This document shows, piece after piece, positions 4,401 through 42,790 of a stretch of 64,000 nt of DNA (its first letter is position 1; every line of letters begins with the position of its first letter). Made by a program: the position numbers and the translations under genes. The DNA comes from Chiloscyllium plagiosum (taxonomy: Eukaryota): assembly GCF_004010195.1 (NCBI RefSeq), contig NC_057718.1, positions 73,779,931 through 73,843,930 of the forward strand, read 5' to 3'. The notes beneath the pieces were generated by a model that saw nothing but the letters and a program-made list of their open reading frames with translations, did no database searches and was not told the DNA's origin.

Positions 4401-5423
4401 ATTTGTTATAATAATGAACCACAAACCCCTACCAGGTCTACTTAAAGAGGACAATTCAGTGCCAGCCATAGCTTCAGGCTGAAAACATGGACTATAATAC
4501 TAAGTACGTATAAAGTTAAAAAACTGTCCGGGAGGCCACATGGTAAATGTGGATGCATTGAGCCACCACCAACGATAAGATACACGACTGGTGGTACTGG
4601 AAACTCCGTAATGGTTTCCAATTTTCTGGACACTTTCAGTCACATCTGACGATATCAGACTCTGGATGTAGAAAGATCCAGTCTTGCCAAAAATGAAACA
4701 ACTGGACATGATGTGGCAAGTGAGAGAGACTGATACTGAGGGGAGACGAAGTTTAGTGTAGGAACCGCAAAAATGACTCCGCATACAAAACAGGCTTGGT
4801 TAACACAAGATGGTCAACACTTGTGATGAAATAAGTTTGGATAGGAGCAAACATTAATGTGGGCTATCTGAAAGCCATGAACTCACAAACAGTGTGGAAG
4901 CAAAATGTGCCCTGCTCCGTGGAACAGTTGGAAACACTATCGGAACCCAATGGACTCTCCTTCTCGTCAAGGGTTGAAGAGACCTCTGAATCTTAGACTG
5001 GACAGAGTGGCTCTCACCAGATCAATGCCTTTGCTACTAGAAGACAGTGAATTTCTCCTGAGAAGCTCCAGGCACAAGAGGCAAGCTCCTGTGTGATACA
5101 TGCTGCCTGTATCCAACACAGAGTCAGTGGAACGTGATCCAGTACCAGGAGGCGTTATAAGAGAAAGGACTTTGAACTCAGAGGGGGAGGGATGTAGTGA
5201 TTGTAGCAAGGTCATCCAGGTGGACCTCATAGAATGATTTCCCTGATTGAGGCTGATAATCTGGTCAAATCAGGGAGCTCTGGCTGACAGATAAAGAGGA
5301 GTATCAGACATTCTGACAGTCTGTGAACTGGCTCTGAGGGAGCTAGACCTGTATCAGGGATTTCCCACATATAAATAAATTATGACTTGGTGATGCGGTA
5401 AAAACTTCTGTAGAATTACTTCA
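1424..5423 (+). mobile_element. Decayed Ty3/Gypsy LTR retrotransposon with both LTRs
   Basis: TG...CA LTRs at 1424-1639 and 5193-5423; PBS-like gtgccaacgag at 1640; PPT agagggggaggga at 5180-5192; gag (EMLRDWLVCGIND), RT (LKSFLGMVNY) and RNase H (AERKYAQI) remnants; integrase largely deleted; imperfect TSD ctccc/ctttc. Confidence 0.9.
3233..3574 (+). mobile_element. HE1-like V-SINE inside the Gypsy RT
   Basis: tRNA-like head (cagtggttaccactgctgcctcacagc), V-core (ggtttcctcccacaatccaaagatgtg), CR1-like tail. Confidence 0.88.
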
Positions 5424-13011: not shown

Positions 13012-13905
13012 TATGGATGTGGGTTTGCTCGCTGAGCTAGAAGGTTCATTTTCAGACGTTTCATCACCATACTAGGTAACATCTTCAGTGGGCCTCCGGA
13101 CAAAGCACTGCTTGTGTTTCCTGCTTTCTATTCATATTTTTGGGTTTCCTTGGGTTTGTGATGTCATTTCCTGTGGCGACATCATTTCCTATTATTTTTC
13201 TCAGGGGTGGTAAATGGGATCCAAGTCAATGTGTTTATTGATAGAGTTCCAGTTGGAATGCCATGCTACAAAGAGTTCTCGTGCGTATCTCTGTTTGGCT
13301 TGTCCTAGGGTGGATGTGTTGTCCCAGTCGAGGTGGTATCCTTCCTTATCTGTATGTAAGGATACTAGTGAGAGAGGATCATATTGTTTTGTGGCTAGTT
13401 GATGTTCATATATCTTGGTGGATAGTTTTCTGCCTGTTTGTCCAATGTAGTATTTGTTACAGTTCTTGCACAGTATTTTGTAAATGACATTAGTTTTGCT
13501 TGTTGTCTTTCAAGTTGATTAGCTGCTGTTTTAGTGTGCTGGTGGGTTTGTGGGCTACCATGATGCCAAGGGGTCTGAGTAGTCTGGCAGTCATTTCCGA
13601 GATGTCTTTGATGTAGGGGAGAGTGGTTAGGGTTCCTGGACATGTTTTGTCTGCTTGTTTGGGTTTGTTGTTGAGAATTCGGCAGACTGTGTTCATTGGG
13701 TACCCAGCCTTTTTGAATACACTGTATAGGTGATTTTTCTCTGCTCTGTCGTAGTTCCTCTGTGCTGCAGTGTGTAGTGGCTCATTGAAATAATGTCCTA
13801 ATGCAAATTCGTTTGTGGATGTTGGGATGATTGCTTCTGTAGTTCAATATTTGGTCCAAATGTGTTGTTTTCCTGTAGACACTGGCTTGAAGTTCCGCAT
13901 TGGAA
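13012..13905 (-). mobile_element. Penelope-like element 3' fragment
   Basis: Frame TLPYIKDISEMTARLLRPLGIMVAHKPTSTLKQQL is typical of the PLE RT to GIY-YIG linker; pLTR with degenerate hammerhead motif at 13053-13092. Confidence 0.85.
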
Positions 13906-15393: not shown

Positions 15394-16589
15394 AATCAGG
15401 TGGTGAATTAGCTAAACAGCACCTGAAAAATGCACAGCATAGAATGAAGCAGGTGGCAGTGCAAACTCTAAAATTCAGACATTTTCCCATGGGGGTGACA
15501 TATTAGTATTGTCACCAGTGGTAAGGGATCCCTTCAAAGCCAGGTTTAGTGGTTCCCTATCAAATTAAGAAAATGTTGATTCACATAAACGATCTGGTAA
15601 AGATGCCAGATAGAAAAAAAACTGTATCAGGTATGTCATGTGAATATGCTGAAACTTTGAGTGATAGGAAATTGGAGAAACACGTGTTAGAACTGCCCCA
15701 CAGAGGAATCAAATCCAGACGACATGGACTTCGATGTGCCTTAAAATATGTTAAATAACGAGGAAGTCCTTGAGATGTGGGATAAGTTAGTGAACTATGT
15801 GGCTCAGGAGCAAAGAAACCAGTTGAAAGGTTTGTTGTAGCAGTATGAGGCCATCTGTAGGAATAAAATGAGGACTAATACTGTTGTGCATGAGGAGCAA
15901 GTAGGGAATGCTGTCCCAATAAAACAATACCCCTACAGGCTTAATCCTCTCAAATCTACACAAATCCAGAAGGAAGTGGATGCGATGTTCAAGGTATCAT
16001 CGAACCGAGACAGAGTGAGTGATGTTTGCTGATTGTGTTAGTTCCCAAACCTAACAGCATGTTATTTTCTTTAAATAGTGAAAATTAGGAGTTATTTGTC
16101 ACTCATATTTTAACAGTTTATGAAGCAAGATGAGCTTTTCTGGGTGCTTGGTTTAATTAAAAGGGGTTCACCTCCATCTCATAACACTAGTATTGCCAAA
16201 ACCCTCAGGACGTTGAGCTAAAAGTTAGGAAATGGATTTAGCCTAGTGAGATCTTTGTTGTCCAGTTCACACAATACGCCGAATAGTCTCCTCCTTTCTA
16301 AGTTTGATGATAGCAAATGTACGACTTGCCACTTTAAACGGAATGTGCTCAAACAGACAGTCTGCAGAAACATGCGGAGGAAAGAGAATGAGAGAAAAGC
16401 GTGTATATTAGAAAGAGAGCGCAATTATCTCCCCCCCCTTTCAGTGCACACCTCTCGTTAACACAGTATAATGAGCAATCAGGAACTGGCCATTCACTCT
16501 ACACAAGAATAGTGTGTCGGACCGATTCTGTCAAACCCTTCCGTCCAACACTAAAATGTGCATCTGTATTTTGTGGCTACTTTGGAGAA

Positions 16590-16663
16590 TACTCTTCGGA
16601 GGGTCGGTGGGACTTATTGGGTCGAAGGGCCTGTTTCCACACTGTCGGGACTCTATGATTCTA
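16590..16663 (+). mobile_element. HE1 SINE 3' tail fragment
   Basis: gaagggcctgtttccacactgt...ctatgattcta. Confidence 0.75.
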
Positions 16664-16974
16664 ACCACGAAGAGTACTAAAGGGAACAGATGTGAGCGAA
16701 GACAGGGAGGTAGAATCCCAAGAGAAAGGCTCTCCTGGTTCCGCTTTGTCCACTCTCCTTCCGGATCCTGGGCTACCTTTTCCGGTTCCAACTCCCTCGT
16801 CTTCCCTCCTGAGGCCGGGAGATTTCCCGTCCCCACTGAACTCCATTTCAAAATCGCAAGTTGGATAAATTCTTACACGATGATTTTATAACCATTTCTG
16901 TAGCGGTTCCCGAATGAGCACTCACACCCTCAACTAATATTTATTGTTTCTCCAATCGCTACTGCTGGAGCATA

Positions 16975-17118
16975 GATATCGCGGCGTCTCCCATCTAAAT
17001 GCGCATGTGCAAATATGCTTGACGTCTTGTTGCGCATGCGTTTGGTGAACGTCACAGGCGGTACTCCGCGGAGTTGGTGTATATAAAGGAAACGGCCATG
17101 TTCGACAGTCTCTTTGTA
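16975..17118 (+). promoter_or_regulatory. CpG-rich Pol II promoter with TATA box and TCT (5'TOP) initiator
   Basis: NRF1-like TGCGCATGTGCA 17000-17011 and TGCGCATGCG 17031-17040; CRE-like TGACGTC 17020-17026; TATATAAAG 17080-17088; YY1-like CGGCCATG 17093-17100; pyrimidine initiator tCtcttt at about 17110, 30 bp after the TATA. Confidence 0.85.
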
Positions 17119-19025
17119 TTCTCTGCCACGTGAGTAAGAACGGAGGCGATGTAGTTGTCTTCAAAAAGTATTTTTCTCAAAACGCTTCCTTTCCTGATGA
17201 TCTGATTATTGTTTCTTATTTTACCATAACAGAATGGATACTACATGACCATAATAAGAAACTAATTCTCTGGGGTGATAATGCGCGCCATGGATGGGAT
17301 CCCTGAGCTTAGTGGGGGAGGTTGTGCGGAGGGAGTCTTGGCACTGGAACAGTGGCTTTCACTTGCCGGAAATCTAGGTAATGTAAGACTGCTTGTATAA
17401 AGTGAATTCACTGAACATTGTTAATTATTAAAAACACCGCTATAACTAATTTGTTAAAATTTCAAACATCCTATTTTTCCGCCCCGTTTTTCGATCATTG
17501 ATCAAGCAAGTTGTAATACTTGAATGCCCCCAGAAAACATGAATTTATAATTTGACGGTTTTTTTTAAACACTGTCGATCTGTGTGTGTGTATATTGATC
17601 TCAATGTAAAACTGAGTCTGAAAGAATCTGTACGTGAAAGTCAGATTTTTAAAAACTTTTAATCTTTTTTTTCCCTTTTTGTTTCGGCCGTGCTACCCAG
17701 GCCCACAACTGTGGAAGCTTCTCTGCCCTGAAGACTTCAGTTGGTAGTATTCGCACCTGGATTTACAAAGTTGTGGGTTCAAGAACCTGAGGCTTGAACA
17801 TCAAAGTAGAAGGAAATCTGTGCAATGTTGTATTGTCAAAAGTGCTGCCTTTCAGTTAGGGTAAGTCCTGATATGCCATACTTTGTGTGTAGGAAAGAGT
17901 TATGACGTCCATATTTCTGAAAGTAAGGTGTCTGGGCTATTATCTCTCCAACTTTACTGAAAACAAGTTTGATTGGTAGATACTAATGAAATAGCAAAGT
18001 GTGCTTTTAAAATCTTTCTGTAAAGAACTGAATTGTCTATAGGATTTTTTTGTACCATGTAACTAAAATTTGTATCTCTTTCTTTTGGGGGGAGACTGTT
18101 CGTCTGTCCTAGTACCTCCAACAATTAATCCATGTGTAGTGGAGGCATGTTTTAAGTCCCAGTTTAAATAGTGTGACAAACTGAATTCCTGGTACTATTA
18201 AATGCTGGAAAGCTTTCCAGGATGCATTGATGCTTACACTTTGAACATTTGACACTCTGGGGCTAGAGCCATGTGTGTTTCTGCATTATCAGTTATTGGT
18301 GTCAGCATGGCTTTTTTTTTAAACTCCTTTTTGGTCAATTAATCCCTTTTGGAAAGTCTGGAGTTTTGTTACCTGGAGTTTATCCTTAGAAATCTGGTTT
18401 TCCAATTCTGCTCTGTCGAGTTCTAGTGGAACGCTTTCCTAATGTTTTACCACTCAGATCTGCAGTGGCACGGTGTTCTTTGCCTGTCTTTCTGCACGCC
18501 CTCATTTAGCTATCGCTACACTTTTCTCCCTTGGTTAGAGTCAATACAGCAGTCCATGTTAAATGTAATTCCAAACTAAACTAGTTTCACCTGCCTGCTC
18601 CTGACCCCTATCCTTTCAAAGCTTTCCTATTTATGTACTTATCCAAATGTCTCAACAGTTATTGTACCCATATAAACTGTTGCTTCAGGAAGTTCATTCC
18701 ATCTGCTAACCAACCTCAGTTTTAAAAAAAAAATAAAATTTCCCTTCATCTTTATTTCAAAATCTCAGTCGCTCCTCACCTTTAAATGTATGCTCACATT
18801 TCTGAATTCATCCACCTGAGAGAAAAGACAACTACCATTAATTCTCTGTACCCCTCGTTATTTTATAAATGTCTATAAGGCTCAACCTCCTATAGACCAG
18901 TGACACAAGTCCCAGCCTTTCTTGTAACTCAAGCGTTCTATACCTGGCAACTCCTGGTAAATCTCTTCTGGACCTCTCCAGCTTAACATACTTCTAGAAC
19001 TGGAGACTGAGGCCTCTTCTAGAAT

Positions 19026-19330
19026 ACAGTGGTTAGCACTGCTGCCTCGCAGCGCCAGAGACCCGGGTTCAATTCCCGCCTCAGGCGACTGACTGTGTGG
19101 AGTTTGCACATTCTCCCCGTGTCTGCGTGGGTTTCCTCCGGGTGCTCCGGTTTCCTCCCACAGTCCAAAGATGTGCAGGTCAGGTGAATTGGCCATGCTA
19201 AATTGCCCGTAGTGTTAGGTAAGGGGTAGATGTGTAGGAGTATGGGTGGGTTGCGCTTCGGCGGGTCGGTGTGGACTTGTTGGGCCGAAGGGCCTGTTTC
19301 CACACTGTAAAGTAATCTAATCAAAAAAAA
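19026..19330 (+). mobile_element. HE1-like V-SINE
   Basis: Near-identical to 15006-15319. Confidence 0.92.
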
Positions 19331-19705
19331 ATAGTGTCTTGTACAACCTCTACCAACTAGTATATTCAAAGACTGAACAATGAGGGAAAGCATGCTAAAC
19401 ACCTTCATAACCACTGTCTGTGACACAAACTTCCAAGAATTATGTACGTGAGCCCCGGTCCCACTATTTTAAACACTATCCAAGGCTCTTCTATTAATTG
19501 TATAAGCCCTACCCTTGGTTGTTCCAAAATGCAATGCCTTTTATCTAGATTGAACTCATTTTTCAGGCTATTGACCCATTTGATAAAGATTCCTTTGCAA
19601 ACTTAGAAAACCTTTTTCACTGTCCACAATGCTACCAGTTTTGGCATCATCCAAAACTTACTAACCATGTCTTCTATATTCTCATCCAAATCATTTATAT
19701 AAACA

Positions 19706-19952
19706 AGAGACCTAAGGGGCAATTTTTTCACGCAGAGGGTGGTACATGTATGGAATGAGCTGCCAGAGGATGTGGTGGAGGCTGATACAATTGCAACATT
19801 TAAGAGGCATTTGGATGGGTATATGAATAGGAAGGGTTTGGTGGGATATGGGCCGGGTGCTGGCAGGTGGGATTAGATTGGGTTGGGATATCTGGCCGGC
19901 ATGGATGGCTTGGACCGAAGGGTCTGTTTCCATGCTGTACATCTCTACGATT
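19706..19952 (+). mobile_element. CR1 3' fragment
   Basis: Matches 49042-49270 (gagacctaaggggcaa...catgctgtacatctct). Confidence 0.88.
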
Positions 19953-22083
19953 CCTGTAGAACACTGTTGATGGGCCTTCCGGCCTGAAAAGCAGTCCTTC
20001 ACTGCCACACTTTTTGTTTTACTTTCTTGCTATTAAGCCAATTATTATCCAATTGGCAAGCTCACCCTGAATCCCATGTAACTAACTTTAATAATTACTT
20101 AAAGCCTTTACAGTCCAAGTAAACACCATTTACCCCACTGCCCTCGATCTTCATAGTAACTACTTCAAATTCAATCAAGTTTGAGACACCATTTTTCTCA
20201 CACAAAACCATGCTGACCATATCTAAGCAATTTGTGCCTCCAAATGTCCATAAAGGCTATATTTAAAAGTCCCCTCCAATTTACCCACAACCACAGTCAG
20301 ACTTGTGGGTCTATGGTTTCCCGGTTTCTCTTTCAACCTTTTTCTTAAAGGTTGAACATTATCACCGCCCAGTCATAGATGTACAGCATGGAAACAGACC
20401 CTCGGGCATCTCATAGTTTTATGAGGGAAAAGTGTCTCTAAATTTCTTTGCATTATAGATGATAGAAGTACTTCTACAAGAGGTCTTGCAATTTCCTTCT
20501 TACTTCAATGTTTTGGGACATATTGGATCAGGTCCCAGAGATTTATCCACCTTTTTTATATTCTCAAAGACCTGAACTTGTCATGCAAGCTATTTTTAAA
20601 ATATCAATTACATCTACATCTTGATCTCTTTCTTCCTCACAGCACAAACTCTAAATTTACATTTAGTACCTACCATCTCGAGTTTTGACACAAGCAACCA
20701 CCTTGATCTTTAAGGGGGCCCTTGTCTCTTACATCACTTAATAATATATTTGTAGAATGTCTTGGATTATCCTAAACCTTGTCTGCAAATGCTATTTCAT
20801 ATTTCCTGTTTGCCTTCCTGCATTTTTTTTAGGAATGCCCCTATGCTCTTTATATTAAGAGATTGGGTCTTTTTCAGGTGAAATGGCATTTCACTGTACC
20901 ACCTCCAATCTTGTTTTTGCTACACACAATGTGGCCTATTGTGCCCCTAACTAGTCGGTGGTCTTCCACTATCAATTGCTTGGGTCTTGCCTAACCCTGT
21001 TCTACAGCAGAGCCAGCTGTAGTACCATAGGCCTGGCTGCTGATGTTACACTCCCCAGTGACAGTATCCAAAATGATACCCCTGTTAGAGGGGAATAGTC
21101 TTACCTACCTGCCCTTCCTGGTGGTCACCCCTCTACCGTACTGAACCCATTGGTGTGGCCACCTCTGTAACGTCTCTTATCACACTCTGCCCCCTATAGG
21201 CTCCTCAGTGTCCAACTGAACAACCTCCTCTTTGAGGAGCTGCAGCCAATCACACTTCTTCCAGAACTGTTGTCAGGGACATTAGACTGCTCCCTAACCT
21301 CACATCTTGCAGGAATGTGTCACTTTAGCCCAGTATCACTCAGTGAAGCCCAATTTTCACCTAAGCTGTGCTTATGCCAACTAGGAACACTAACTGGTTA
21401 CTTATATTACAATGCAATCTTCATAAACAGACTAAATACCCTCTCTAGGCTACAACACAACCCTTTAAATTAGAGGATGAAGTACAACAATGTTTGGGTT
21501 TTACTATTCCTTGACACTGGGTTCTTCCTCACTCTGCTGATCAGTTGTGTTAACTGAGCTGACTTCTCCCAGAATGCTCTTTGAAGTCTTGCTTCTGTCC
21601 TCCATTGGGCTTTGTACATAAAATGAAAGGTATGTTAAAATGCAAAAAGATTAAAAATATATCAAACACCAATAAAATCAATCACTTAGGTGATTAAGAA
21701 TTAACTGAATTAAAATGACCACTTTTTTCAATAAAGTCTTTGAAGAAAACAGCTAACTGTGTAGGGAAACAGTTTTAAAATGCATATCTTGTAGCTTCTG
21801 AACTAAGGTGTGGCAAGTATACTTCAGCTATTCAATGAAGGCCTCTAAAGCTAATTTTTTTCAAAAAACGTTCATGGTGTGAAAGATGCAATTTTTGAGT
21901 TTTCAAATGTTAATGCAACAAAATCAATTAAAATCTTGAAATTTTTTTAAACTTAATTGTTTAAACCTGCAATTCCGGGAGCAGCTGCAAGCTCTGCTCA
22001 TTGATTACTGAAATGTAAATGAAGTACACTACTACTTAGATATAGGCCAGTAGTTGAGCTACTGGTTTTTTGATTCTGGTCTT

Positions 22084-22149
22084 ATCAATGATGAGCAAAT
22101 CCCGAACCTGAAGTTCTGATGAGAAAGGTACGGATCTGACTGCTGAGAT
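22084..22149 (+). ncRNA. SNORD50: Box C/D snoRNA, SNORD50 (U50) family, copy 1
   Basis: C box ATGATGA 22088-22094, D' CTGA 22108-22111, C' CTGATGA 22116-22122, D CTGA 22143-22146; guides ATCCCGAAC and TACGGATCTGACT match human U50 as I recall it; short terminal stem atc/gat. Confidence 0.92.
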
Positions 22150-23351
22150 TTGACTGAATAAGTACAAAAGCTTAAAATTACAGGTGATCGAAACTCTGCT
22201 AGTCAGGCAGCATTTGTGGGAAAAACAATAACATGTCAGGATTCAATGGAAAGTCACTACCCTGAAATATTATTTGTTACGAGACGTATTGCTTCCTGTC
22301 CACCTTATTGACTTACTATGTAACAAAGTGACCTAATTTCTTTCCCTGTCTTCTGTTTAATTCTGACCCCCCCCCCCCCCCCCATGTGCAGATGTGACGG
22401 CACAATCCGTTCTACATGATGGATGACCCTCCAGAAGTTTGATCCTTGTTTTAGCAATTTGCATAGGTAACTGTTTTATTTAAATCTTCTCTGCTTTAAG
22501 ATGGCACATGATTAAGACCTGTGTTTGTAATTTGAATGGGATGAGCCAGTGATATATCTCCTTGGTGTTTCTGCAGTCCAGATGTAGTATCTTTATATAA
22601 AGGATGTCAAATTTCTGTAATTGAATGTTTCTGACTTTTGGACTAAGACTTGACATTGTGAAAACATGCTTCTGTTCATGTCATAGTCATAAATTTATGT
22701 GCAAACTTGACACTGCAATCCCAAAAGGCAATCTTTTATCTTGCCCACCAAGTCAGTGCCACTTTCAAAGAACAATAACATACTGAACTTAATGGCATTT
22801 GCAATTCTGTATGAGCACAAGTCAAAAATCAACTTTACTTTTGTAACATCTCCTAGCCCTTTTGACTTTTTCTGATAATGGGGAAACACTGGAACACTTG
22901 TGTCCTGTTTGCAACCCTTCTTGAGATTGTCTACTTATCTACTATTGCAGAATATGATTGAAGTTCAAGTTGCAATTTTACCTAAATCAGCTTAAGTGTG
23001 TAAGTACAAGTGTGGCGACTCGTGGCTTCCAGCTTTCACCTGCATTGTGATAATATACTCATACTACATGCTTTTTAGGTGGCCTGGCTATGCCTGAACT
23101 ACACTGAAGAGAATCTGCATTGACTGAATCTGATATGTGCTACAATAGAACGAAGTAAGCTTATTGTACAAATTTCAACATTTTGAAATTTTAGTCATGA
23201 TACTGGTATGATCCACTTGAGATTATTTTTTTCTTTTCCACAGTACTTTGGTAGCAGATGGAAGTTTGTTCTGATTTCAGGGTAATTGCAACACATACTT
23301 TGCAACACTAATTTTGAAGAAAATCTGTTTAGCTACATAGTTAACTAAAAT

Positions 23352-23432
23352 GGTCTAATCAGTGATGTTACTATCCCGAACCTGACATTTGTGATGAAAC
23401 ACTTAAACGGATCTGACTGCTGAGATTAGACC
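23352..23432 (+). ncRNA. SNORD50: Box C/D snoRNA, SNORD50 (U50) family, copy 2 (terminal stem included)
   Basis: C box GTGATGT 23362-23368, D' CTGA 23382-23385, C' GTGATGA 23391-23397, D CTGA 23420-23423; same two guides; perfect 9-bp stem ggtctaatc/gattagacc; lies in a short GT-AG intron (23282-23525). Confidence 0.93.
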
Positions 23433-23744
23433 TCAAATACACTTTTCAGTTATCCAGTATTATTTTGGTTATGCTAATATGGCTATACACTTAATTGGCC
23501 TTGTATGAATCCACGTGTCTTCCAGAACAAGTCAGTAGCAGTTAGCAAAATGTTGGGTAATTTCAGGATTTACTTTGTGTCAGCCATATCTTGTAGTCTC
23601 GTGCAGATCAAGTCAGACTTCTTTAATAATGTTAAGTCGGGTCTGCATTTGACAAGCTGCCAACATTAATAAATCTGGACTAAATTGCTTGTCATTTTGT
23701 TCACATAGCTGTTATGGTGAGGTTTGTGCACTCTTCCCCAGAAT

Positions 23745-24230
23745 GAGAATTGTTACAGCATGAGGTGGTGACCATTTGGTCTATTGCATCTGCACCGGCT
23801 CAAAGTGCATTCCATATTCTAATAACTTAGTGAATTTTCTCATCATTTTTGCATGTCACTTTAAATTCATGCCCTCCTGTCCCTAATATTTTTTAGGGAC
23901 AGCTCTATTCTGTCCAGCCCACTTTGGTTTTGAAAACAGTTATCAAATCTCTTAGCTCCCTTCTCTCCAAGGAGGACAGTCTCAATTTCACTCATCTATA
24001 AAATTACTTCAGGTTTCTAATTTCAGAAGCAATTCTATTAAATTGCTTCTGTTCTCCAATGTATTTATACTTTTAGTATAATGTGGCATCCACTGACAAA
24101 GTCAAATTGTGTACATCTCATGTTCACATCACTTTGCTCTTTGTACTGCATAAAGCTGAAGACACTGCTCTCTCCACCTGTTGTACCAACTTCAAATATC
24201 TGTAAATATATGCTCAGATCCCCCTGCTTC
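23745..24230 (-). mobile_element. Old CR1 3' fragment
   Basis: Degenerate similarity to 5680-6260. Confidence 0.65.
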
Positions 24231-25335
24231 TGCTTATCCCAGGCTCCTGTCCCAGAGGTGCATGACAAAGTAGCATTTGGTGTCAAGGCATCTTAAAGTA
24301 GTCAGATGAGTTGAGCTTTTAACTAGTTTTAAGTTGCCTTACCTGCAAAAGATTGGGGGTAACGTCTAGGTGGAAAGATCTGGACACTGCAGATATTCCT
24401 TGAGGGTAGTGTCCAATGCTGATCCATCTACAGGTGCTTCAGTAACCTTCCCTCAAAATCCAAAGTACAGATGTCTGTCAATGATTAAAATTGTTTGACT
24501 TTTTGTGCTTTCTCATAGCTGAAGCATACAGTATCTGCATACAGCAATACCTTGGGCTGTAAGCAACAACTGGCATGGTCTAGAAAAACTAATCTCATCC
24601 ACTATTAAGAGTAGCAACAGTGTGCAGATTGTTGTAAGAACTAGTTTGTTTTTGTCTTTTGTGGATTAAAATGGAAAAGGAACTATCTGTCTTCTGGTAG
24701 GTGGGTTGCACGTGAGCTGAAACAAAGCTGTCCAAATGGGATTGTTTGATCTCTCAGGCACAATTTGATCTCTCAGGCTTAAGTCTGACCTTGTACCACC
24801 TGAAAACAAGTGAAAGCATTAAAGAAGCAGGATTCTAATCAACACAATCGGTTAGCAAAACCTGTGAACAAAGACCACTGAGCTGCTTTCAGTTTCCCTC
24901 TTCCTAAGATGTGCAATGTTTTTCCCCCTGTGTGTAAAGGGACTAAAGTTAAATAATAAATACTTGCTATTTAGTTGTAGCTAAATTTTTTTTACAATGA
25001 ATGTACTTCTCCAGTAGTGAGTCATTTCTGGGAACCTGGATCCAAAAGTCAGGTTAACTTGGGAATTCTTGTACTGTAACTTTTTAGTGGTCACTGCAGA
25101 AACTCAGTTTAAATCAATTGAGGTTTGAGGCCTAATTAGAAACCTTATCAGTTTATCTTTGTTATAAAGAAAACAGTTGAATTAAAGCTGTAGCTTCCCT
25201 AATCTTGTCCATTTTATTCTCTCAGGTGTCATCTATAATCTGAAGACTCTGTAACCAGATATGCAGTTGACTTTGTCTTGGTGCACATTCTTGGATGACA
25301 ATAGTGTTTCCCAAGTTACAATATAACCAACAATT

Positions 25336-25341
25336 AATAAA
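25336..25341 (+). terminator. Poly(A) signal of the snoRNA host gene
   Basis: AATAAA about 110 bp after a strong acceptor (ccctaat...attttattctctcag, 25225), followed by T/GT-rich sequence. Confidence 0.6.
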
Positions 25342-28300
25342 ATTTTGGTTTTAAATCTGCCTTTGGTCAGACTGTTGTGCTATATTACAGAGCCTCTCTG
25401 TACAAAAAGGCTCACTGCATCTTGTTAAAAGCAGAGGACCAACCCCCCAAAATACAACCAAATCACCCAAAGAGTAGCACCTCTCCCTACAATCTGTTAA
25501 GTAGTGGGAGAAGGGGTTGGTAATCTGATTTTTTGTTTTTGCTTCAGCAAATTCTAGTGGTTAAGAGATCCCTGATGCTCACTTTGCAATCCACAAATAA
25601 CAATTTAATTATCTAACTCTTAATGAACAAATTAACTAAACTGTTAACAGACTGAACAATTCCCTTCTGATTGCTCTGAATAACATGATTCTGATAGCAT
25701 GCTATTTCAATAACTCCTACTTCTATAACAAAGAATTTACGCTCCATTACAGTTGGGTTAACATCTTCTCTAACTTCATTTTCTGACTGATCCTTCTATC
25801 AGGACTGTTTCCTCTGGATTCTTTTGTCCAGGAATTTAAATGGTGTACCATGTAAATGTTTGAGCTCTTATCTCCAAACTGATAACTCGCATTCTTCTCT
25901 GCCCCCCACCCCCGATTATATTTTTTTTCCCAAATGCCTCAATCTTTTATACCCTTGACCTATCAATATTTTTACAGTTGGATTGGTCCTAGGTTGACGA
26001 AACTCAGGTTTAAATTTAATGGGTTTTTGGTAGCTAAGGGTCTGATTTAAAAGCTGGTATCTTTGGTAGAAGTGCTGCTTTGCCTGCTAACAATATAGCC
26101 TCTTGATACAAACTTTTCAATTCAGGTGCTCTAAACACCTGAAAGCTCAACTTTGCATTTTAATCTCTAAGTTTAAAATAACTAAGTTGTCTTTCAATTC
26201 CACGCATCTTTCTATAACACAGCTCCCAATACCTACATCACCTGTGTTGATGGCAATTTTAAAGTTTCAAAATTTGCCACACTGATTTTTAAATTCTCCA
26301 AAATGCCTCCTCGCATTGTTCCAATCATAGTAATTGTGTTCTTTTTCAACAAATTAGCTAATGGTGCCACTAAAGTTTGGTACAGATTTCCTTTAGAATC
26401 CATCCACTCAGTCCTAAAATTGTAGCACTTTTTAAATGGTCTTGGAAATTCTCTGGCTTTTGTCTTTGAGTTTCTTGGTGTTATCCATCCATCTGTGTCC
26501 TAAGAATGTCGCTTTTGCCTTTACAAACTGTTTTTTGCCAAGTTTTATGACCAGTGTGGCTATCTATAGTCTGAGCTCTGCAAAATGCACCATCTGATCT
26601 TTCCACAAATGACAAAAGATCACTAAGTCATCTATGTAGATGTTGGAATTAGTAAATCCTGCAACAACAGTTCATACTACTTTGAAAAGTGGCTGGTGTG
26701 GTCTTTGTTTCAGAAGACATTACATTAAATTGATATGGCCCATTTGAGGTCACAAAAGCAGATTTTCTTTTGGTTTTGATTTCTCTGACAATGGTACTTG
26801 CCAGTAACCAGGAAATATTGGATTGTCCCACTAATTCCACACTAATCCTCTAGCTTTGGAGTTGGGTGTGAGTTAGATTTTTGTCACAGCATTTACATTC
26901 TGATAAACTATGCAGAATTGTTGAGTACCACCAGTTTTGGGGACCAACTTGACTGGTGAACTCAACTCGCTTGATTCATGTCTGTCCTCTTCCTGGAGCA
27001 TCACTTTCACTTCCTTCTGAACCTGCACTAATTAAGAGATTAAACCTGTTTATCAAAACAGCATTCCCTACATCGTCCTTGTGTGTGATTGCATTAGTTC
27101 TCTCCATTCTACTCCCACATAGGTCCTCATAGCACTGTAATAAATTTTTCAATTCAGTTTTCTGTTCCAGGGATCGATAACTCACTACCCTATCCCATTC
27201 CTTCAGGATTTTGTCATTGAATCAATTTATTCTGAGGCATGTTGATCTGGATTTGATTCCTCAGAGTGGCAGTAACTAATACCTGTTTTTTTCTGGTTTC
27301 CTTTCCTTTCCCTGTCATAATAATTCAGAATGTTCACATGGCATATGCTAGATAGGAAAAAAATTAATTGTATCTTTATCAGGTAATTCAGCTAGCTTAG
27401 CCCTTCGATCTGATAGGGATCACTAAACCTTGCTTTGAAGAGATCTCTTACTACTGGTAACAGCACCAATACTTTATCCCTACAGGCAAACATGAGTTTT
27501 GCATTTCTTATCTGCCTCTTGCTTCATTAGATACTGTGCCACCTTTCAAATGCTGTCTTGATAATTCACCTACTCTGTTTAATCTTTCCCTCACCTCAGA
27601 TACATAATCTGTCAGTGAAATCTGATTTTTGACCTATCAATCTTTCCTTAATTTAAAGGCTGTCTTACTATGTGTCCAAATATCAATTCAAGTGGTGTAA
27701 ACTGGGTCAATTCATTTGGAGCATCTCTTAATAACAATGAACATAAATGGGATACAATTTTCCCACTCATTGGGTAATCCTGGCAATAAGCCCTCAACTT
27801 TAAGGTCTATTGCCACCTTACCATTGCTTTGTGGGATTCAGGATGGTATGTACTTGATGTGAGGTGTGTAGTGCCTAAACTATCCATGACTTCCATAAAT
27901 AATTTGTCAGTAAAATTGGACCATAGGTCTGACTGAATCTCTGGATCCACAACGTCTGAAGAAAGTAGGCAATTCTTGTGCAACCTTTTTTGACTTGACA
28001 TTTCATATTGGAATTGCTTCCAGAAACATGGAAGACATTAGGGTTAGATACTGATTCCCACTCTTGGTTTTAGGGAGGGACCTATGCAATCAATCATTAC
28101 CCGTGTAAACAGTTCTTAGAATGCTGGAATTGGCATCAAAGGTGCTGGTTTCATCAATGCCTTTCCTACAATCTGAAATGTGACACGAATGGCAAAATTC
28201 AATCTCATTTCTATGTGATCCAATAACAATTGGTCAATAGAACTGCTTTTGTATCTTAGCCTGAATCTTCCTCATTCCTCGATGACCTCCTAATTTGTGT

Positions 28301-29837
28301 GCTACTCTCAATACTTGTCTGTATTCTACAGGCAACATAATGTGATGAACTTCTCCCCATTCCTCCTCTGCACTAATTTGCGAAGGTCTCCATTACTGCC
28401 TTAAAATTCCAGAATATATTCAGATATAATTCTATTATCATCTCATCTTTTTATTGTAACTCCATCAATCTGTCAGAACTAAACACCTCTGTCTGATTCT
28501 CTACCTGCTCAAAATTTTCCTTTACCATCTCACCAAACAGCAAACTGGAAACCAACTCCTTCATCTTTCTCTTTTTGTTTTACCTTCTTGTTTACCTGCT
28601 GTGGAATCTTGTGACCACACAGCCCCAGAAAAGTTCTAGGGTATTTTTCTTTTAACTCTTAAATTGCCTGGTTTTCTTTTGGCTTTTCCACTACAATGGA
28701 CATCACTCACACCTGTGATTCTACTATATCATTTCCAAAAATAATCTGTATTCCTGGAATAGCCAGTTTTTCTATTACTCCCATTATCACTTCCCCAATC
28801 TTAATTAGACTTCTCAGCCTTGTCTTACACAGGGGAAAATTACTCCTCTCTCCATTTATTCCACAGATTACCACTCTCAGGCAATATTTCAGAAGGAGTG
28901 CAAATCTTTTCATGTCTTACTATTACAAACTGACTAGCTCCCATATCTCCATTCTACCCGTGTAAATCGTAACCACACAGATGACAATTGGATGCTACCT
29001 TGCTATCCAACCCCTGAGTAGGCTTTGCACTCTCCTGCAGCTCCTCAACTTCTCAGGATTTCCTTCACTACCTTAACTGATTCCACTCTTTTAACCTCTT
29101 TTATCACATACTTTTTCCCAGTGTTTTTCTTAAACCACCAGCACTGTGACTGTGTCTCTCATCTTATTGTAGTCAAAACGCCTGGGGTCTTTCACCTCTT
29201 TTTCTACCCTTTTGCGTTTCTTTTATCACTTGTGGCAAATTGTGATCTACTTTTTGTTTTTCATTGAAGGATCTCCCTCTTTTCCAATTTCTATCCCTTT
29301 GGAATGAAATTGCTGTCAGAAGCTAGGTTTTGATTTATGCACTAATGCGTATTTATCTGCCATCTTTTCGGCTCTTGTGTTTTAACTTACTGTTCCTCAA
29401 CAGGAGTTCTTACCACTTCTGGAAGGGAGTTTTTAAATTCAGCCAGCAGAATAATAGCTCCAAGAGTCTTGTATATCTTTTCTATCTTTAACGCTCTCAT
29501 CCATCTATCACTTTACAATCCATAAGTAAAAAATTATTTATTAAATTCTAACCATGAACAAATTAACTAAATATTAACAGACCAAACAATTCCCCTCTAA
29601 CTACTATCAATTTCTGAATAACACAAGATTCTAATGATATGCTATGTGTGGCCGGCCGAGCCTCTCAAAATGGCTGACTTACGAAAAATCGGATAATAAA
29701 TAAAGCATGCTGGGTAATCGAGCCAAGCATCAGACAAAAGAGTCTGTGCTAAAAACATCTATCAAAGTTGCTCTGACTAATTCTTTCAAATTCGAAATAA
29801 GTCGAACCTGGTTCCTTTCTTATATTTTTGAACTGTT

Positions 29838-35652: not shown

Positions 35653-37606
35653 CTGGAAAACTGGGCAGAAGGAAGAAGCTCCGTGTTGTCATTCTGCCGG
35701 AGTGGACAGAAGGTGAGCAGCCATTGGAAATTTTTGAGAAGTGGTTGTTGGAATTCCTTAGCTTGGAGGCTGAAAAGGGAAGGATAAAGATTGAGAGAGC
35801 CTACTGGGTTGTGGCACAGAGGCCAGGAATGGACCAGCGCCCTTACCCTGTCCTGGTATGGTTCCATCATCATGAAGACAAACAGAGTCATGGAAGCTTC
35901 CAGAGCCCAGGCAAGGATCCGAGGGCATTGGTGTTTGAAGGCACCGGGGTCATATTCTTCCAAGACTTTTCAGTGGAGGTGATCCGGACAAGAAAATCCT
36001 TTGACAGCATCAAGAAGAGATTGAGAGAGCTTGGGATCTAGTATTCTCTAAGATACCTAGCTTAACTATAATGGATCTGTACACTTATTTGACTCGCCAG
36101 AGAAAGCCAAGAACACACACCTGACAATTGAATAGGTACAGATAACAATGTTGTTCCGGTCTGTCCTTCTTTAGAGAGGATTTGGTGGAGTCTCCTTTTT
36201 GTTGGTAATAAGTTGCATTAGATTATGCTTGGGATGGATAGAGTGTGTATCTTTAATTTCTAACTTAAGCTATACCAAGGGATGGGTGACATATTTACTT
36301 TTAACGTACTTGTGTATAGTATTAAACTTACTCTTTTTTTGCCACGTTATCTTGTATTGCCTGTGTTTGTGGCATTACCCAAGCTAGGAAGAGTTCAGAG
36401 GGTGGTTGTGATGGCTAGGAGGGTTTTGGGATATGTAGGTGCCCCCTTTGGATGGAGGGTAAATTCCTCTAATCAGTGCCTTTGGCACTTTTTTGCTTTT
36501 TCATTTTTGATGTACAATGTTTTTACAAGTTTTGTGTAGGTTTGTTGGTTGTAGCTGTTTTAGTTTGTAGTTTTTATGTTTTGTGTATTTGCTTTTACTG
36601 AAGTTCAGCAATTCATAATTCAAGTTTTTCCTCTCTGGAGTTTAAATGTTGATGTAGAATGTTTTGGCTAAGGAAGTGTTTAAGTGATGTACTTGGAACA
36701 TTAAGGGGAGCCACTTGCCGATCAAGAGGAGAAAGATACTCTCCAGTCTTAAAAAGGAAAGGGTGGATCTCACTTTGTTGCAAGAGACACACTTAGATGA
36801 TGCAGAACATTTGAAATTACAACTCGATTATAATCGAGTTTAGGAACTCATTGGGAAGCATCTCCCATTTAAGTTGTTAGGGTGTATTAAAGACACACAC
36901 GGGAGATTTGTAATCCTTAAAGCTTTGATAAATGGGGAAGAATACGGGATCATAAATGCTTACTGCCCCCGGCCCACCCCCTCAAGTTCCTGGTGGACAC
37001 ATTTTTAACTTGATTAGCCTCGCATCTCAGCATATTATAGCGGGCAATTTTAATTGTTTAACAGATCCTATGCTAGACCAATTGCCTAAAGGCTCCCTGA
37101 TATCTTCTTCATGATCTAAACAATCAAAGGATTTGTGTGTTGAACTAGAACTGGTAGATGTTTGAAGGCATGTTCACACTACAAGCAGAGATTTTACATT
37201 TTCTTCTAGTCCGCGCAAATGTCATACTAGGATTAATCTCTTTTTGACTCCTCCAGCGCATTTGGGCTTGATGGCGTCATGTACAATTGGCTACTATCTC
37301 TGATCATACTCCAGTGTACCTAATGGTCAAGAGTAAGGACACTATGGTAGTTTTGAGGCACTGGAGACTAAATCCCTTCATCCTTAGGGATAGCAAGTTT
37401 ACTGAATATCTTTCCACTGAATTCAGGGCTTCTTTAGACATTAAGTCAGATTCAGCCAGTAATCCATCCATTCTTTGGGAATCTGCTAAAGCCTATGCTA
37501 GATAGTCAGTTATTTCCTATTTTGCCAGTAAGAAGGGTGAGCAGCCACAATTGGTCAAAACATGGCTGAAGGCAGCCAAGAAGGCATACTTTGAGAGACC
37601 CTCGTT

Positions 37607-37726
37607 TGCATTGGATAGGTATATGGAGGATAGTGGGTTAGTATAGGTTAGGTGGGCTTGGATCGGCGCAACATCGAGGGCCAAAGGGCCTGTACTGCGC
37701 TGTATTCTTCTATGTTCTATGCTCTA
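37607..37726 (+). mobile_element. Short CR1 3' tail in L1 ORF2
   Basis: Nearly identical to 1276-1390. Confidence 0.85.
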
Positions 37727-40229
37727 AGTTACAGAAGATCACAGCGCTCCGGTCCACATTGAACTCCATGCTCACACGAACAGTTAAGAAGGAGCTTGCA
37801 TTTGCAGAACAAAGGCTGTTTGAGCATGGAGACAAACCGGGCAAGTACTTAGTGTATCTTGCCAGGAAAAGGAGTGCTCCTTAAGCCATCACCTCGATCA
37901 GGGAAGGTACTGGAAAATTAACTCATGATTCTAAAAGGATTAACGTGGCATTTTAGAAATTTTACTCCAAACTATACCAATCTGAAAGTTGTGAGGATGG
38001 GTGGGCTAGGATGGAGTCTTTTTTCAAGAATTTGGAACTCCTGGGTTTGACCCCTGAACAAGAGACTCTCCTTAATGTCCCATCGTCAGTGCAAGAAGTG
38101 AAGGAGGCTGAGTCACCTCCAGGATGGAAAGGTGCCTGGTCCCAATGGACTTCCCAGGGAATTTTTTAAGGAATTTATAAACATACTGTCAGGACCGATG
38201 CTTAGTATGTTCAATGATTTACACAGTCATGGCCTCCTCCCGCCATCTTTAAGGGAGGCAAACATCTCTCTCATCCTTAAAAAAGGGAAGGCCCCAGAGG
38301 AGTCTGCTTCCTATAGACCATTTCACTCCTGAATGTCAATTTCAAAATCCTACGTAAGACTCTTGCACAAACACTAGAAACTGTGTTGCCCTCCATCATT
38401 AAGGAGGATCAGACGGGTTTTATAAATAGTTGCAGATCATCTAATCATGTCAGAAGGTTGCTTAATATGATCCAAATTTGTCAAAAACAATCAGTACACG
38501 GATTAGTGATCTCTCTAGATGCAGAGAAGGCGTTTGATCAGGTCGAATGTCCATACTTTTTTTTATATACTTTAAAGCGGTTTGGCTTGGGTGAGGTCTT
38601 TATCAGATAGGTAAGGTTCTTTATGATGACCCTCTGGCTGCAGTTCTCACTAATGATGTACTGTCAAGCAATTTTAATATCCTTAGGGGCAGTCGACAGG
38701 GCTATTCCTTATCACTATTGCTTTTCACATTGGTGATTGAACCACTGGCAGAGGCTATATGTAGGGATCCTAATATATCTGCTCCAGAAGTGGGGACAAA
38801 GTCACATAAGATTGCATTGTATGCAGATCTTTTTATCAAAGCCAACAGTTTCGGTGCCTCATCTGATACAATGCATTAACTTGTTTGGCAGTTTCTCAGG
38901 TTACAAGATCAACTTTACGAAATCAGAGACCATGCCCATGGGTGGCCTTCTGAAAATGCCTAGCCCTGAAGGTGAATCGCGATTCCACTTTAAATGGTCA
39001 CAGGAGGGTTTTCTTCACTTAGGTATATTCATTACTCCCTGTCTTTGATCGGCTATTTAAAATCAATTTTGTCCATTTATTCAACAGAATTAACCAAGAC
39101 CTTCGAAGATGGGATGCACTTCCGATCTCCTGGCTAGGTTGGATAGCCTTCATTAAAATGAACATTCTCACCCGCCTGCTATACCCTTTATGAATGCTTC
39201 CTTTGATCTTTACTAAGCAACATTTAGGAGACTGAACGGTTGGTTCAGTTCTTTCATCTGGTATTGCAAGCGACCCCTTATTAAACTAGCTAAATTACAG
39301 CTACCCCACAGATTGGGAGGAGTGGACCTCTCGGATATTAGAAACTATCAATTAAGCTTGTTATCTTACTTGGATGACTGGGCCAAGGGGACCCTCACTC
39401 ACTAAAGTTAGACATCAAAGTTTTTCAGGCAAGATGCCCCCTTACCAGCTTACCATTCTTGGACAAAATGAGGACAATTAAGGAATACTGCCCAATAGTT
39501 ATTAATACTGTTAAAGCATGGCAATGCACAGAGTGAGGACAACACTGCCAAAACATCATTTTTTTTACATCCATAGTTGGTCTGCTGGGCTTTCAGCCGG
39601 GGATGATGAACTCAGGGTTTAAACTATGGACAGCTATGAGAGAAGGAGCTGGATGTTGAGATCTCCTCTGAAATGTGGGGGGTTATCTGGGAAAATGCAA
39701 GAAGGATCTCAATTTGCAATAGGACCCATGCCTTGCAATTGAAGATTCTCCACAGGGTCCACTTAGCTCCAGACCATCTCTCAAAATTTAAAGTGAGAGT
39801 ATCCCCTATATGTCCCAAGTGCAAAATAAGTGCGCTCACTCGTTGTCTCTGGTCCTGCCACAGGCTCCAGACATACTGGAGTGTTGCGGTCGGTGAAATA
39901 GAGAGGGTCTTGGCGACAGAGGTGGGGATGGACCTGGTATCTCTTCTTCTTGGCCTAGTTAATCTACTTCCTTTAGACATGCACAAAAAAAAGCTTTTCA
40001 GTATCCTTACCTTTTGTGCGAGAAAGAACATTCTGTTAGGGTGGGTGTCTGAAAACTCCCCCGGGGATTGTCGGGCTGGTGTAAGCTAGTCATGGAACAC
40101 ATACTTTGGATTTTCTTACAAGTTTGGTGCACCATAAAACTGAGAATTTTTATAAGACACAGCAATCCTTTTTGGACTACTTGGGTACAGATTTGTCTGC
40201 CATACTAATAAGGGCCTTTACATAGCCAT

Positions 40230-40980
40230 TGTTGGGGAGATTTCACTGGGGTGTTTAATGTAGGGCTAGGGAGGGTGACACTTCCAGCCCTGAAATGGTT
40301 AACAACAGCCAAGCGAGCTGCTGCAGGCGACTGCATGACTGCTGGAGCTTGTAAGGGATATGCATAATGTTAATTAAATCTTGGAGCCTGTAAATACCAG
40401 CCAGTATCAATTGCCCCATCGAAACTCGGGATTAATAAAGAAACCGATCGGAATCTGTAACTGTTAGACAAGTGTGAATTGCTCTATCGGAACCTGTAAC
40501 TATTGAGTGTGAATGGCTCTATTTAAGTCTAAAGTTGATAAGTGTAATTGACAATTTAGTTAAACTGAAACTATTGAAAATGGCTAGCCTGTCAGACGCA
40601 TAGTAATTCCTTGAAACAATGAACTATTGAATACGGGATCAGAACCGCTCCGGGGATGGCTGAGCCATTGTCAAGCACAGCAGGAGCTGGACAGGCACTT
40701 TGATGCGGCCAATAGGAGGACGGATCCCCAGCGCGCGCAGATGAATGGACCAACGGGGAAGGCGAACTGACCGGGGACTCCAGGCAGCGCGAAGTATAAT
40801 TGTGTCAAGTTTGAACGGGAAGACAGAACGCCTTCTCCAATGAATGCATGCTTGTAGATTCGTTGTACCAGTTAAGATTCTGTGAATAAACTGCTGTCTG
40901 CGTCTAACCATAGTTGCCAGTGTGAGTCTCTCCTTCCGAAAGAACACGCAAAGACGGGACCCCGCGGGTCCGTCTTAACA
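40230..40980 (+). mobile_element. Solo LTR
   Basis: TGTT...AACA ends, perfect 5-bp TSD gccat, TATA-like element at about 40795, AATAAA at about 40886, CpG-rich. Confidence 0.9.
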
Positions 40981-42692
40981 GCCATGATGATTCAGTTTAA
41001 TGAATCTGGCATCCATACAGAAAGAATTACAAACACGTGAATATGTATGCTCTTGATGGTCTAGGACTAATACTCTGTTTTGCTGAGCTGTATTACATTT
41101 ATAATTATTTATGATTATTATTATCGTCATGAGTTATTAGTTAGTTGTTAGTTATTATTTGTTTATGTAAATAGTGGTTTTCTTTGTACTGTTTTGAATT
41201 GTTTTTTGTATTTGTTGTAATATACAATAAATCATCCTTTTTTTGATATAAATACATACAAAAAAGAACGAGATGATTGTAAAACACAAAGGGCTATTCG
41301 CCCGGCATAAACATAACTGTGAGTGTATCCCGGGAGAAGTGATAATCGAGGGGCCAGACCTGTATCCACAATAATAATAGGGTTTCCCCAGACTGGCAGA
41401 GGGGGAGGTGGCCAAGATGATTGACAGTTTGTTATAGCAAGGAGTGCTGCAACCTGTTGCCTCCACTAATAATGCTCCGATTTGGCCAGTCAGGAAGCCA
41501 GATGGTTCATGGCATTTAACCATCGATTATCGGGAACTTAATAAAGTCACCCCCTCCATCATTGCACCAACAGTAGCCACCAGCCCTGTCACAATAATGA
41601 AGCAAGCCCCGCAATTAGTTGATAGTACTTCATAGTACTTGATATCAGGAATGGTTTCTGGTCCATGCCCTTGAATCGGTCCTATCAGTACAAATTTGCA
41701 CTTACCTTCTAGGAACAGCTTCCTAGATGAATTACCCAACATTTTACACGTGCTAGGTTGTAAAATAAATCGGAAAAAGGCACAAATTCTACAGCCAAGG
41801 GTTACGCACTTGGGAATGATAGTCACCCACGGGAAAAGAGAGATAGACCAAAAGGAACATAGATTCCATAGTGCAGCTCCCAATTCCCTGAGGTGTTAGT
41901 GCATTCTGATTTTTCCTAGGTCAGTGGGATACTGCAGGAACCAGATCGATGAGTTTGCTACCACGGGAGCCCCACTCTCAGAGATGCTGAAAAATACCAC
42001 CACCTGGAATTGGACATCCCAACATACAAAGGCAGTAACTGATTTAAAACACCCTTGTAACAACACCTGCCTCATTAGTTCACAACCCTGACTTACCATA
42101 CATCCTAGAAGTTGCAGACCAGATGATCATTGCTGTTCCACTGCAAGAGCGGCAGGGTAGGCCAGGCGCAGTGGCCTATGTCTCCAGGGTAGGAGCAAGG
42201 GTTTCTATGTGCAAGCGACACCACCTCGCAATCTTTTGGGCAGTCCAGTATTTCGACTGCATAATTGGTTTAAACCCACTGACGAAATTAACTGAGCACA
42301 GCCCAGTCCAGCTCCTGCTGAACAGCTGAATCAAAGATGGCTCAATGAGCCAGTTCAAGCTGCACAATGGACTCTACCACTTTAAGGTCAGGACATCACA
42401 GTCAGATGGACCAAGTGCCCACCTACCAAGCCGATAACCTAAATTATGGGGAAGAAACACAAGACTGCCAAATCATAGCCATGAAACACGCCCTTTTATA
42501 CCAAAGCAACATGAGAGACTGTTACGGACAAGACAAAAGGATAGGCAGGTAGAAACTGTAGTCAAAATCAATGTAGATGGCTCCTTCAAGGTGGAGGACG
42601 GCAGTCAGATCACCAGCTGTGGGAAATATATGACAGACACACAGAGACAACCACAAATTGAACTCGTTTTAAAATTACCCGGCTATCTAAAT

Positions 42693-42790
42693 TGAAACTT
42701 TATTGCTGGAATAGCACAGCAGGTCAGGCAGCATCCAGGGAACAGGAGATTCGACGTTTCGGGCACAGGCCCTTCTTCAGGAATGAGCAG
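42693..42790 (-). mobile_element. Short Penelope pLTR-like insertion with minimal hammerhead motif
   Basis: Minus strand attc-CTGAAGA-a-gggc-ctgt-gccc-GAAAC-GTC-gaat; 9-bp TSD tatctaaat. Confidence 0.85.

Follow-up and report, generated by a model that had tools for sequence, protein, structure and literature searches.

The closest described relatives of the locus considered here are non-coding genes of mammals: human U50HG (SNHG5) and mouse mU50HG-b, both non-coding 5'TOP hosts of U50 (PMC3753356). In the zebrafish compilation, SNORD50A and SNORD50B are instead listed as intronic in the protein-coding gene rpl13a, beside SNORD34 and SNORD33 (PMC7668251, Suppl. Data 4). In the Xenopus tropicalis table, four copies of SNORD50 are interspersed among SNORD34 and SNORD35a-c within 4.7 kb at chr3:31.91 Mb. 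Their targets are C2377 and G2392 of 28S rRNA, and the table maps the human 6q snoRNAs SNORD100/101 to chr5 and the SNORD50 cluster to chr3 (PMC6984369 supplement). The table names no host for this cluster; we infer that it is rpl13a. Two further non-coding snoRNA hosts, both retained between distant vertebrates, are a gas5-like gene in chicken (PMC2653536) and DANCR in zebrafish, the latter at a conserved position between named neighbours (PMC12694859). U50 and SNORD50 were not found in the supplements of PMC2653536 and PMC3349704, nor SNHG5 and SYNCRIP in that of PMC12694859, results that are uninformative because other identifiers are possible there.

The shark locus lies in a 64-kb stretch of Chiloscyllium plagiosum DNA, called the window below. 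The original prediction held that it is a non-coding 5'TOP host of two SNORD50 copies. The gene kind, that of GAS5, UHG and U50HG, is well known, and the shark locus is probably a further example of it. Two SNORD50 copies are genuinely present, as follows.

22083..22149, plus strand: SNORD50 copy 1, with box C at 22088, box D' at 22108, box C' at 22116 and box D at 22143
23357..23426, plus strand: SNORD50 copy 2, with box C at 23362, box D' at 23382, box C' at 23391 and box D at 23420

Both align to the full Rfam SNORD50 model (RF00278, positions 1-72 of 72), copy 1 at 70.8 bits (E 2.7e-13) and copy 2 at 63.4 bits (E 3e-11), against a gathering threshold of 42 bits, and this bears out the two U50-like snoRNAs that had been claimed. 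They are the sole gathering-level matches in the 64 kb by a default Rfam scan; since that scan detects both, the further suggestion that the locus is easily missed is weak as far as the snoRNAs are concerned. A box C/D scan located all four boxes in each copy and terminal stems of 5 bp (copy 1) and 9 bp (copy 2). Guide pairing was scored on zebrafish rather than shark 28S motifs, those of LSU positions 2848 and 2863 in the zebrafish compilation (PMC7668251, Suppl. Data 4). With these motifs the D guide forms 13 of 13 pairs in copy 1 and 12 of 13 in copy 2, and the D' guides form 8 and 9 contiguous pairs, respectively, compared with 12 nt in zebrafish SNORD50B. The +5 nucleotide falls on a C for the D guide and on a G for the D' guide. 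The D guides of both copies carry the zebrafish-type letters, not those of the Rfam consensus. The two copies can be aligned with each other across the snoRNA and terminal stem only; guides and boxes are preserved, the flanking sequences have diverged, and conservation restricted in this way fits selection acting on both.

A third snoRNA was found neither by Rfam over 16.5-26.5 kb at E values up to 10, which returned 21 matches, nor by the box C/D scan of the host. Apart from the two SNORD50 copies, a single one of these matches exceeded its own cut-off; it is to archaeal sR12, overlaps copy 1 and was rejected as box similarity. No tRNA genes were found. A search with a two-motif SNORD50 pattern gave a single metagenome-contig match, which we attribute to chance, as it falls in the coding sequence of a bacterium and Rfam gives no match there.

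About 5 kb ahead of the snoRNAs is a promoter-like region with the following features.

16251..17750, strand not given: CpG-rich promoter region, CpG observed/expected 0.7-1.07
17080..17087, plus strand: TATA box TATATAAA, 30 nt ahead of the predicted start
17110..17129, plus strand: predicted first exon of 20 nt, with a C start and a 6-pyrimidine tract (TCT/5'TOP)

The CpG-rich region also contains what are presumably ETS/GABP-like (16759, 16780, 17366), CCAAT (16952), NRF1-like (17001, 17032), CRE-like (17020, 17049) and E-box (17127) motifs. The predicted start has the context tCTCTTT, with its C at 17110, and the first exon is bounded by a GTGAG donor at 17130 that ranks at the 98.4th percentile. 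A 5'TOP is defined by a C+1 start and a tract of 4-15 pyrimidines (PMC6954239); the motif here has C at 17110 and 6 pyrimidines, 30 nt past the TATA box. The combination of TATA box, TCT start and 20-nt exon with donor occurs once on the two strands of the window, where 0.025 occurrences are expected from 200 first-order Markov simulations of a pattern that was defined after the site had been seen. The claimed TATA/TCT promoter with its 20-nt first exon is thus present as a set of located motifs, unique in the window and inside a CpG island.

Candidate exons and a candidate 3' end follow downstream. Splice sites were ranked with matrices of approximate frequencies.

17701..17860, plus strand: uncertain candidate exon of 160 nt, acceptor at the 97.8th and donor at the 99.7th percentile
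22392..22466, plus strand: candidate exon of 75 nt, acceptor 245 nt past the box D of copy 1
23079..23154, plus strand: candidate exon of 76 nt, weak acceptor (90.1th percentile)
23244..23281, plus strand: candidate exon of 38 nt, acceptor ranking top
23526..23556, plus strand: candidate exon of 31 nt, acceptor 102 nt past the box D of copy 2
25226..25360, plus strand: candidate last exon, AATAAA at 25336-25341, 3' end assumed

Copy 2 would sit in a predicted 244-nt intron (23282-23525). The several exons of 31-76 nt that had been claimed do exist as four AG...GT units (75, 76, 38 and 31 nt), every site of which falls at the 90th-100th percentile of AG/GT sites, but their density is unremarkable: the 1.2-kb bin that holds all four is matched by 11 of 106 background bins. 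A threshold at the 93rd percentile, applied to both ends, leaves only two of the four units, and a stricter exon-search setting returned no candidate exon in 22.0-25.4 kb. The internal exons around the snoRNAs are therefore not shown to exceed chance. An AG at 22183, 37 nt past copy 1, ranks at just the 39th percentile and was dismissed as an acceptor. The claimed poly(A) signal fares similarly. The AATAAA at 25336 is one of 16 A[AT]TAAA hexamers on the plus strand of 16.9-25.6 kb, and it is plausible solely because it stands 110 nt behind the strong acceptor at 25226 (99.8th percentile). The median snoRNA-to-acceptor distance in human is 247 nt for lncRNA hosts and 109 nt for ribosomal-protein hosts (PMC13736004); the shark distances of 245 and 102 nt are similar to these two values, respectively.

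Taken as a predicted gene, the locus resembles SNHG5 and mU50HG-b in being a non-coding host, in its 5'TOP start (predicted in the shark), in carrying each of two U50 copies in an intron of its own (likewise predicted in the shark) and in having two guides against 28S rRNA. This likeness is one of layout, and there are differences: the D guides in the shark are of the zebrafish type, and the copies are 1.27 kb apart compared with about 0.3 kb in human SNHG5. With the zebrafish rpl13a cluster the shark locus shares two SNORD50 per host, the same 12-nt D-guide core and the same target positions, whereas the zebrafish host is a ribosomal-protein gene with SNORD33 and SNORD34, neither of which was found in the shark locus. 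The Xenopus cluster likewise has several SNORD50 in one transcription unit (predicted in the shark) with the same targets, but there they are mixed with RPL13A-type snoRNAs. More generally, short non-coding exons and intronic snoRNAs (again predicted in the shark) are shared with the chicken gas5-like host and zebrafish DANCR; DANCR differs from the shark locus in having a demonstrated neighbour-conserved position.

How a gene of this layout came to be in a shark could be explained by either of two histories, which we consider about equally likely, each a little short of an even chance. In the first, the shark locus and mammalian SNHG5 are orthologues: the non-coding host would already have been present in the ancestor of jawed vertebrates, bony vertebrates would also have carried U50 in rpl13a, and redundant copies would have been lost reciprocally, the non-coding host in zebrafish and frog and the rpl13a copies in mammals. 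The layout shared with human and mouse argues for this history, a non-coding 5'TOP host with two U50 in separate introns being predicted in the shark as well. Against it, the zebrafish and Xenopus tables list U50 only in an rpl13a-type cluster, and exact host retention across vertebrates is reported to be uncommon (PMC13736004). The window, for its part, yielded no synteny anchor. In human, the neighbour of SNHG5 at 6q14-15 is SYNCRIP; no RRM/hnRNP domain was found in the scanned window ORFs, which leaves the 64 kb with no SYNCRIP or other anchor, and the absence of a SYNCRIP-type domain from the scanned ORFs of the roughly 38 kb downstream also argues against orthology. A CpG island at 40.2-41.2 kb was rejected as a SYNCRIP promoter, as it precedes retroelement domains.

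In the second history, U50 was ancestrally in rpl13a or another host and moved on two occasions into a non-coding 5'TOP host, in cartilaginous fishes and separately on the way to mammals, so that the likeness to SNHG5 is convergent. The agreement of a teleost and an amphibian on an RPL13A-type cluster favours independent origin, as does the well-documented turnover of snoRNA hosts, but the comparison involves two non-mammalian species whose tables may omit copies. The narrower proposal that SNORD50 left rpl13a itself twice, each time for a two-copy non-coding 5'TOP host, is tentative and rather below an even chance. The shark locus hosts SNORD50 copies, as an SNHG5 orthologue would, and the same host was not found in the intermediate lineages, zebrafish and Xenopus (two species only). 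The original prediction that this host architecture predates the split of cartilaginous and bony vertebrates does not follow, because both non-mammalian bony vertebrates checked depart from the SNHG5 arrangement, zebrafish with its U50s in rpl13a and Xenopus with SNORD34/35 alongside.

An unlikely alternative is that a protein-coding gene houses the snoRNAs, within its 5' UTR introns or between exons that escaped notice, or that they are silent copies unlinked to the promoter at 17.1 kb. The weakness of the exon model favours such a reading, and ORFs shorter than 38 aa beyond the host fell outside the Pfam scan. The preservation of boxes, guides and stems in both copies speaks against it, as does the strong terminal acceptor with AATAAA at 25.2-25.3 kb. 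The coding content of the window points the same way. Of 140 plus-strand ORFs of at least 20 aa within the host, none reaches the Pfam cut-off and a single one has any match at all; Pfam on short ORFs may overlook small or fast-evolving coding exons. Among 128 spliced models of the predicted exons the longest ATG ORF is 47 aa, and the core model of 375 nt has none longer than 27 aa. Across the window, 570 ORF submissions (569 distinct) gave no host-protein domain. These scans covered ORFs clear of the intronic repeat and, beyond the host, those with less than 30% of their length within window self-repeats; minus-strand ORFs were taken from starts on either side of 36.2-48 kb. Fourteen ORFs had any match, 11 to transposon-type domains and 3 to non-transposon domains (DUF3302, E1_dh and STING_TM) that were rejected as below the Pfam cut-off, and no domain outside the transposon types comes close to significance. 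That a duplicated ribosomal-protein gene such as an rpl13a paralogue decayed into this host, with its TOP promoter and U50 introns kept, would suit the promoter and the zebrafish location of U50 but is very improbable, given no Ribosomal protein L13 exons or SNORD32/33/34/35 at the locus, no ribosomal-protein Pfam match in the 140 host ORFs, no SNORD33/34/35 match over 16.5-26.5 kb at E up to 10, and a box C/D scan of the host that gives two U50s only.

The locus is thus best regarded as a probable non-coding 5'TOP host of two SNORD50 copies, a reading made likely by the SNORD50 matches, the guide pairing, the unique promoter composite and the lack of a host-protein domain. On the sequence side (Rfam, pairing, promoter and ORFs) the claim of such a host stands; on the RNA side, including the 5-kb link from promoter to snoRNAs, it is still a prediction. 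The predicted shark gene would work like SNHG5/U50HG. Transcription by Pol II from a TATA/TCT (5'TOP) promoter would yield a precursor of about 8 kb with non-coding exons, two introns of which would give rise to SNORD50 box C/D snoRNAs by splicing and then trimming. In 28S rRNA, the D guide of each would direct 2'-O-methylation at the cytidine that corresponds to human C2848, and the D' guide would do so at the guanosine corresponding to human G2863. The short spliced RNA would be a by-product, probably cleared by nonsense-mediated decay.

SNHG5/SNORD50 is a much-studied cancer locus. The shark locus is in itself ordinary, and its value is as an outgroup for SNHG5/SNORD50 history, the comparison of cartilaginous and bony vertebrates spanning about 450 million years. 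A common snoRNA and a TOP promoter are insufficient to prove host-gene orthology. A non-coding U50 host in a shark would mean either that such a gene survived about 450 million years with reciprocal losses, or that this architecture evolved on two separate occasions. If SNORD50 did leave rpl13a twice, the shark gene and SNHG5 would be twins by convergence; SNHG5 itself would be of recent origin, and comparing the two would offer a natural test of how non-coding hosts for snoRNAs arise.

Two SNORD50 (U50) copies are present in the candidate host gene at window positions ~17110-25360 (plus strand), and these are the only two gathering-level Rfam matches in the 64-kb window.

22083-22149, plus strand: SNORD50 copy 1, Rfam 70.8 bits, full model
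23357-23426, plus strand: SNORD50 copy 2, Rfam 63.4 bits, full model

With both scores above the Rfam SNORD50 cut-off of 42 bits, the pair of U50-like snoRNAs put forward in the original prediction is real. Boxes C, D', C', and D are found in both copies alike, and the copies can be aligned with each other over the snoRNA and terminal stem only, their flanks having diverged. No third snoRNA was found in the host, either by Rfam at E values up to 10 or by a box C/D scan. The pair is presumably already marked in public shark annotations via Rfam.

The reference for guide pairing was not shark 28S rRNA but the SNORD50 target motifs catalogued by zebrafish RiboMeth-seq (PMC7668251 Suppl. Data 4). 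Against these motifs, the guide upstream of box D pairs at 13/13 positions in copy 1 and 12/13 in copy 2, the guide upstream of box D' pairs over 8 and 9 contiguous bases, respectively, and the fifth nucleotide of the guide duplexes falls on the expected C and G. Where the Rfam SNORD50 consensus differs, both shark D guides carry the zebrafish letters, which leads us to predict a fish-type 28S target in shark. By the same reference, copy 1 has the longer D and shorter D' guide and copy 2 the reverse; these opposite lengths may be a slight hint of a division of labor.

The proposed start of the host lies upstream of the snoRNAs.

17080, plus strand: TATA element TATATAAA, motif
17110, plus strand: TCT motif with its C at 17110, candidate start
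17130, plus strand: donor of the predicted first exon, from sequence

The TATA/TCT promoter and 20-nt first exon claimed earlier are present as sequence, in a composite with the donor that occurs once in the window versus 0.025 times expected (200 Markov simulations, with the pattern defined after the site had been seen). A CpG-rich island encloses the promoter, and the candidate start has a 6-pyrimidine tract, inside the range of 4-15 in the 5'TOP definition quoted in PMC6954239. As sequence, this promoter is convincing. Two ETS/GABP-like motifs lie in G+C-rich DNA (16740-16830), some 300 nt before the TATA box; they could belong either to the host promoter or to one that is divergent.

The exon model, while plausible, is weak. 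AG/GT-bounded units of 75, 76, 38, and 31 nt do lie where the predicted exon sizes (31-76 nt) point, with splice sites in the 90th-100th percentile by approximate matrices, but as many such units occur in 11 of 106 background bins. Only two of the four clear the 93rd percentile at either end alike, and a stricter setting returns no candidate exons in 22.0-25.4 kb. The claimed poly(A) signal likewise exists, as an AATAAA at 25336 that follows a strong acceptor at 25226, but the region contains 16 hexamers of this kind. The predicted acceptors lie 245 and 102 nt beyond box D, distances similar to medians published for human hosts (PMC13736004). Within the long predicted intron that precedes copy 1 lie a SINE-like and a LINE-like fragment (19026-19953), both many-copy in the window.

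The host appears to carry no coding signal. Pfam matched 1 of 140 plus-strand host ORFs of at least 20 aa, below the cut-off; the longest ATG ORF over 128 predicted spliced models is 47 aa, and the 375-nt core spliced model has 8-9 stops per frame. Window-wide, Pfam returned matches for 14 of 570 ORF submissions (11 transposon-type domains and 3 sub-cut-off), the submissions leaving aside intronic-repeat ORFs, minus-strand ORFs starting at 36.2-48 kb and, outside the host, ORFs shorter than 38 aa or lying at least 30% in window self-repeats. No SYNCRIP-type domain was found by Pfam in the scanned ORFs.

A decayed LTR retroelement, possibly an endogenous retrovirus, occupies ~40200-48000 (plus strand), with a CpG-rich stretch on its 5' side (40.2-41.2 kb) and broken ORFs at 42.0-44.0 kb matching RNase H-like, RNase H, integrase zinc-binding, and integrase core domains. 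A decayed LINE lies at 36688-40086 (plus strand; endonuclease match 36688-36840, RT match 38317-38607), and a 96-bp tandem repeat at 61796-61989 (two copies, 97% matches). Four further fragments have, among them, RT RNase H, weak GIY-YIG (Penelope-like), integrase zinc-binding, and zf-RVT domains.

4201-4479, plus strand: retroelement fragment, domain match
13204-13509, minus strand: retroelement fragment, domain match
28237-28392, minus strand: retroelement fragment, domain match
53519-54217, plus strand: retroelement fragment, domain match

We propose that Pol II would initiate at the TCT element, that splicing would free two introns from which SNORD50 RNPs would be trimmed, and that each SNORD50 would guide the 2'-O-methylation of two 28S nucleotides that lie close together. 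The exons, once joined, would be a by-product, probably removed through nonsense-mediated decay, as reported for the spliced RNAs of UHG and GAS5 (PMC6954239). SnoRNA identity, guide pairing, and promoter motifs are established at the sequence level; the whole scheme of a TCT-started precursor with two SNORD50 introns and an exon by-product, whose RNA-level steps we infer, is quite likely.

Human U50HG/SNHG5 and mouse mU50HG-b are described as non-coding 5'TOP hosts in syntenic positions (PMC3753356), and the shark candidate would also be a non-coding 5'TOP host. The zebrafish catalogue assigns its two SNORD50 copies (chr17:24616631-24617003) to introns of rpl13a, with SNORD34 and SNORD33 coming after them (PMC7668251), whereas the shark host has no SNORD33/34/35 match. 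Four SNORD50 copies in Xenopus tropicalis are interleaved with SNORD34 and SNORD35a-c (chr3:31907635-31912288) in a table that gives no host name (PMC6984369); because mammalian Rpl13a carries Snord32A/33/34/35A (PMC7038934), we infer an rpl13a-type cluster. As one distant anchor, SNORD100/101 (human 6q) are listed on frog chr5, not chr3 (PMC6984369). The teleost and amphibian listings therefore agree on a host unlike SNHG5, and neither of these two species of intermediate lineages has its SNORD50 copies listed in an SNHG5-like host. Given zebrafish rpl13a and the Xenopus SNORD34/35 cluster, it does not follow, as had been concluded, that the SNHG5 host architecture is older than the divergence between cartilaginous and bony vertebrates.

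The shark locus as an SNHG5 orthologue is unproven. If the host gene is granted, orthology with reciprocal losses stands at slightly less than an even chance. An independent origin of the shark host, on the same condition, also falls just short of an even prospect; host turnover, reported as common among vertebrates (PMC13736004 section 10; PMC6984369), speaks for it. That the host is an eroded rpl13a paralogue is unlikely because its ORFs contain no L13 domain by Pfam and Rfam at E values up to 10 finds no SNORD33/34/35. A literature search lying mostly outside subscription journals, and on which some supplements may bear, found neither a shark U50 host nor a SNORD50 host switch.

Overall, the locus is probably a non-coding 5'TOP snoRNA host with two SNORD50 copies. 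Such a host would be of a known gene type, and its mode of working would be like that of SNHG5.
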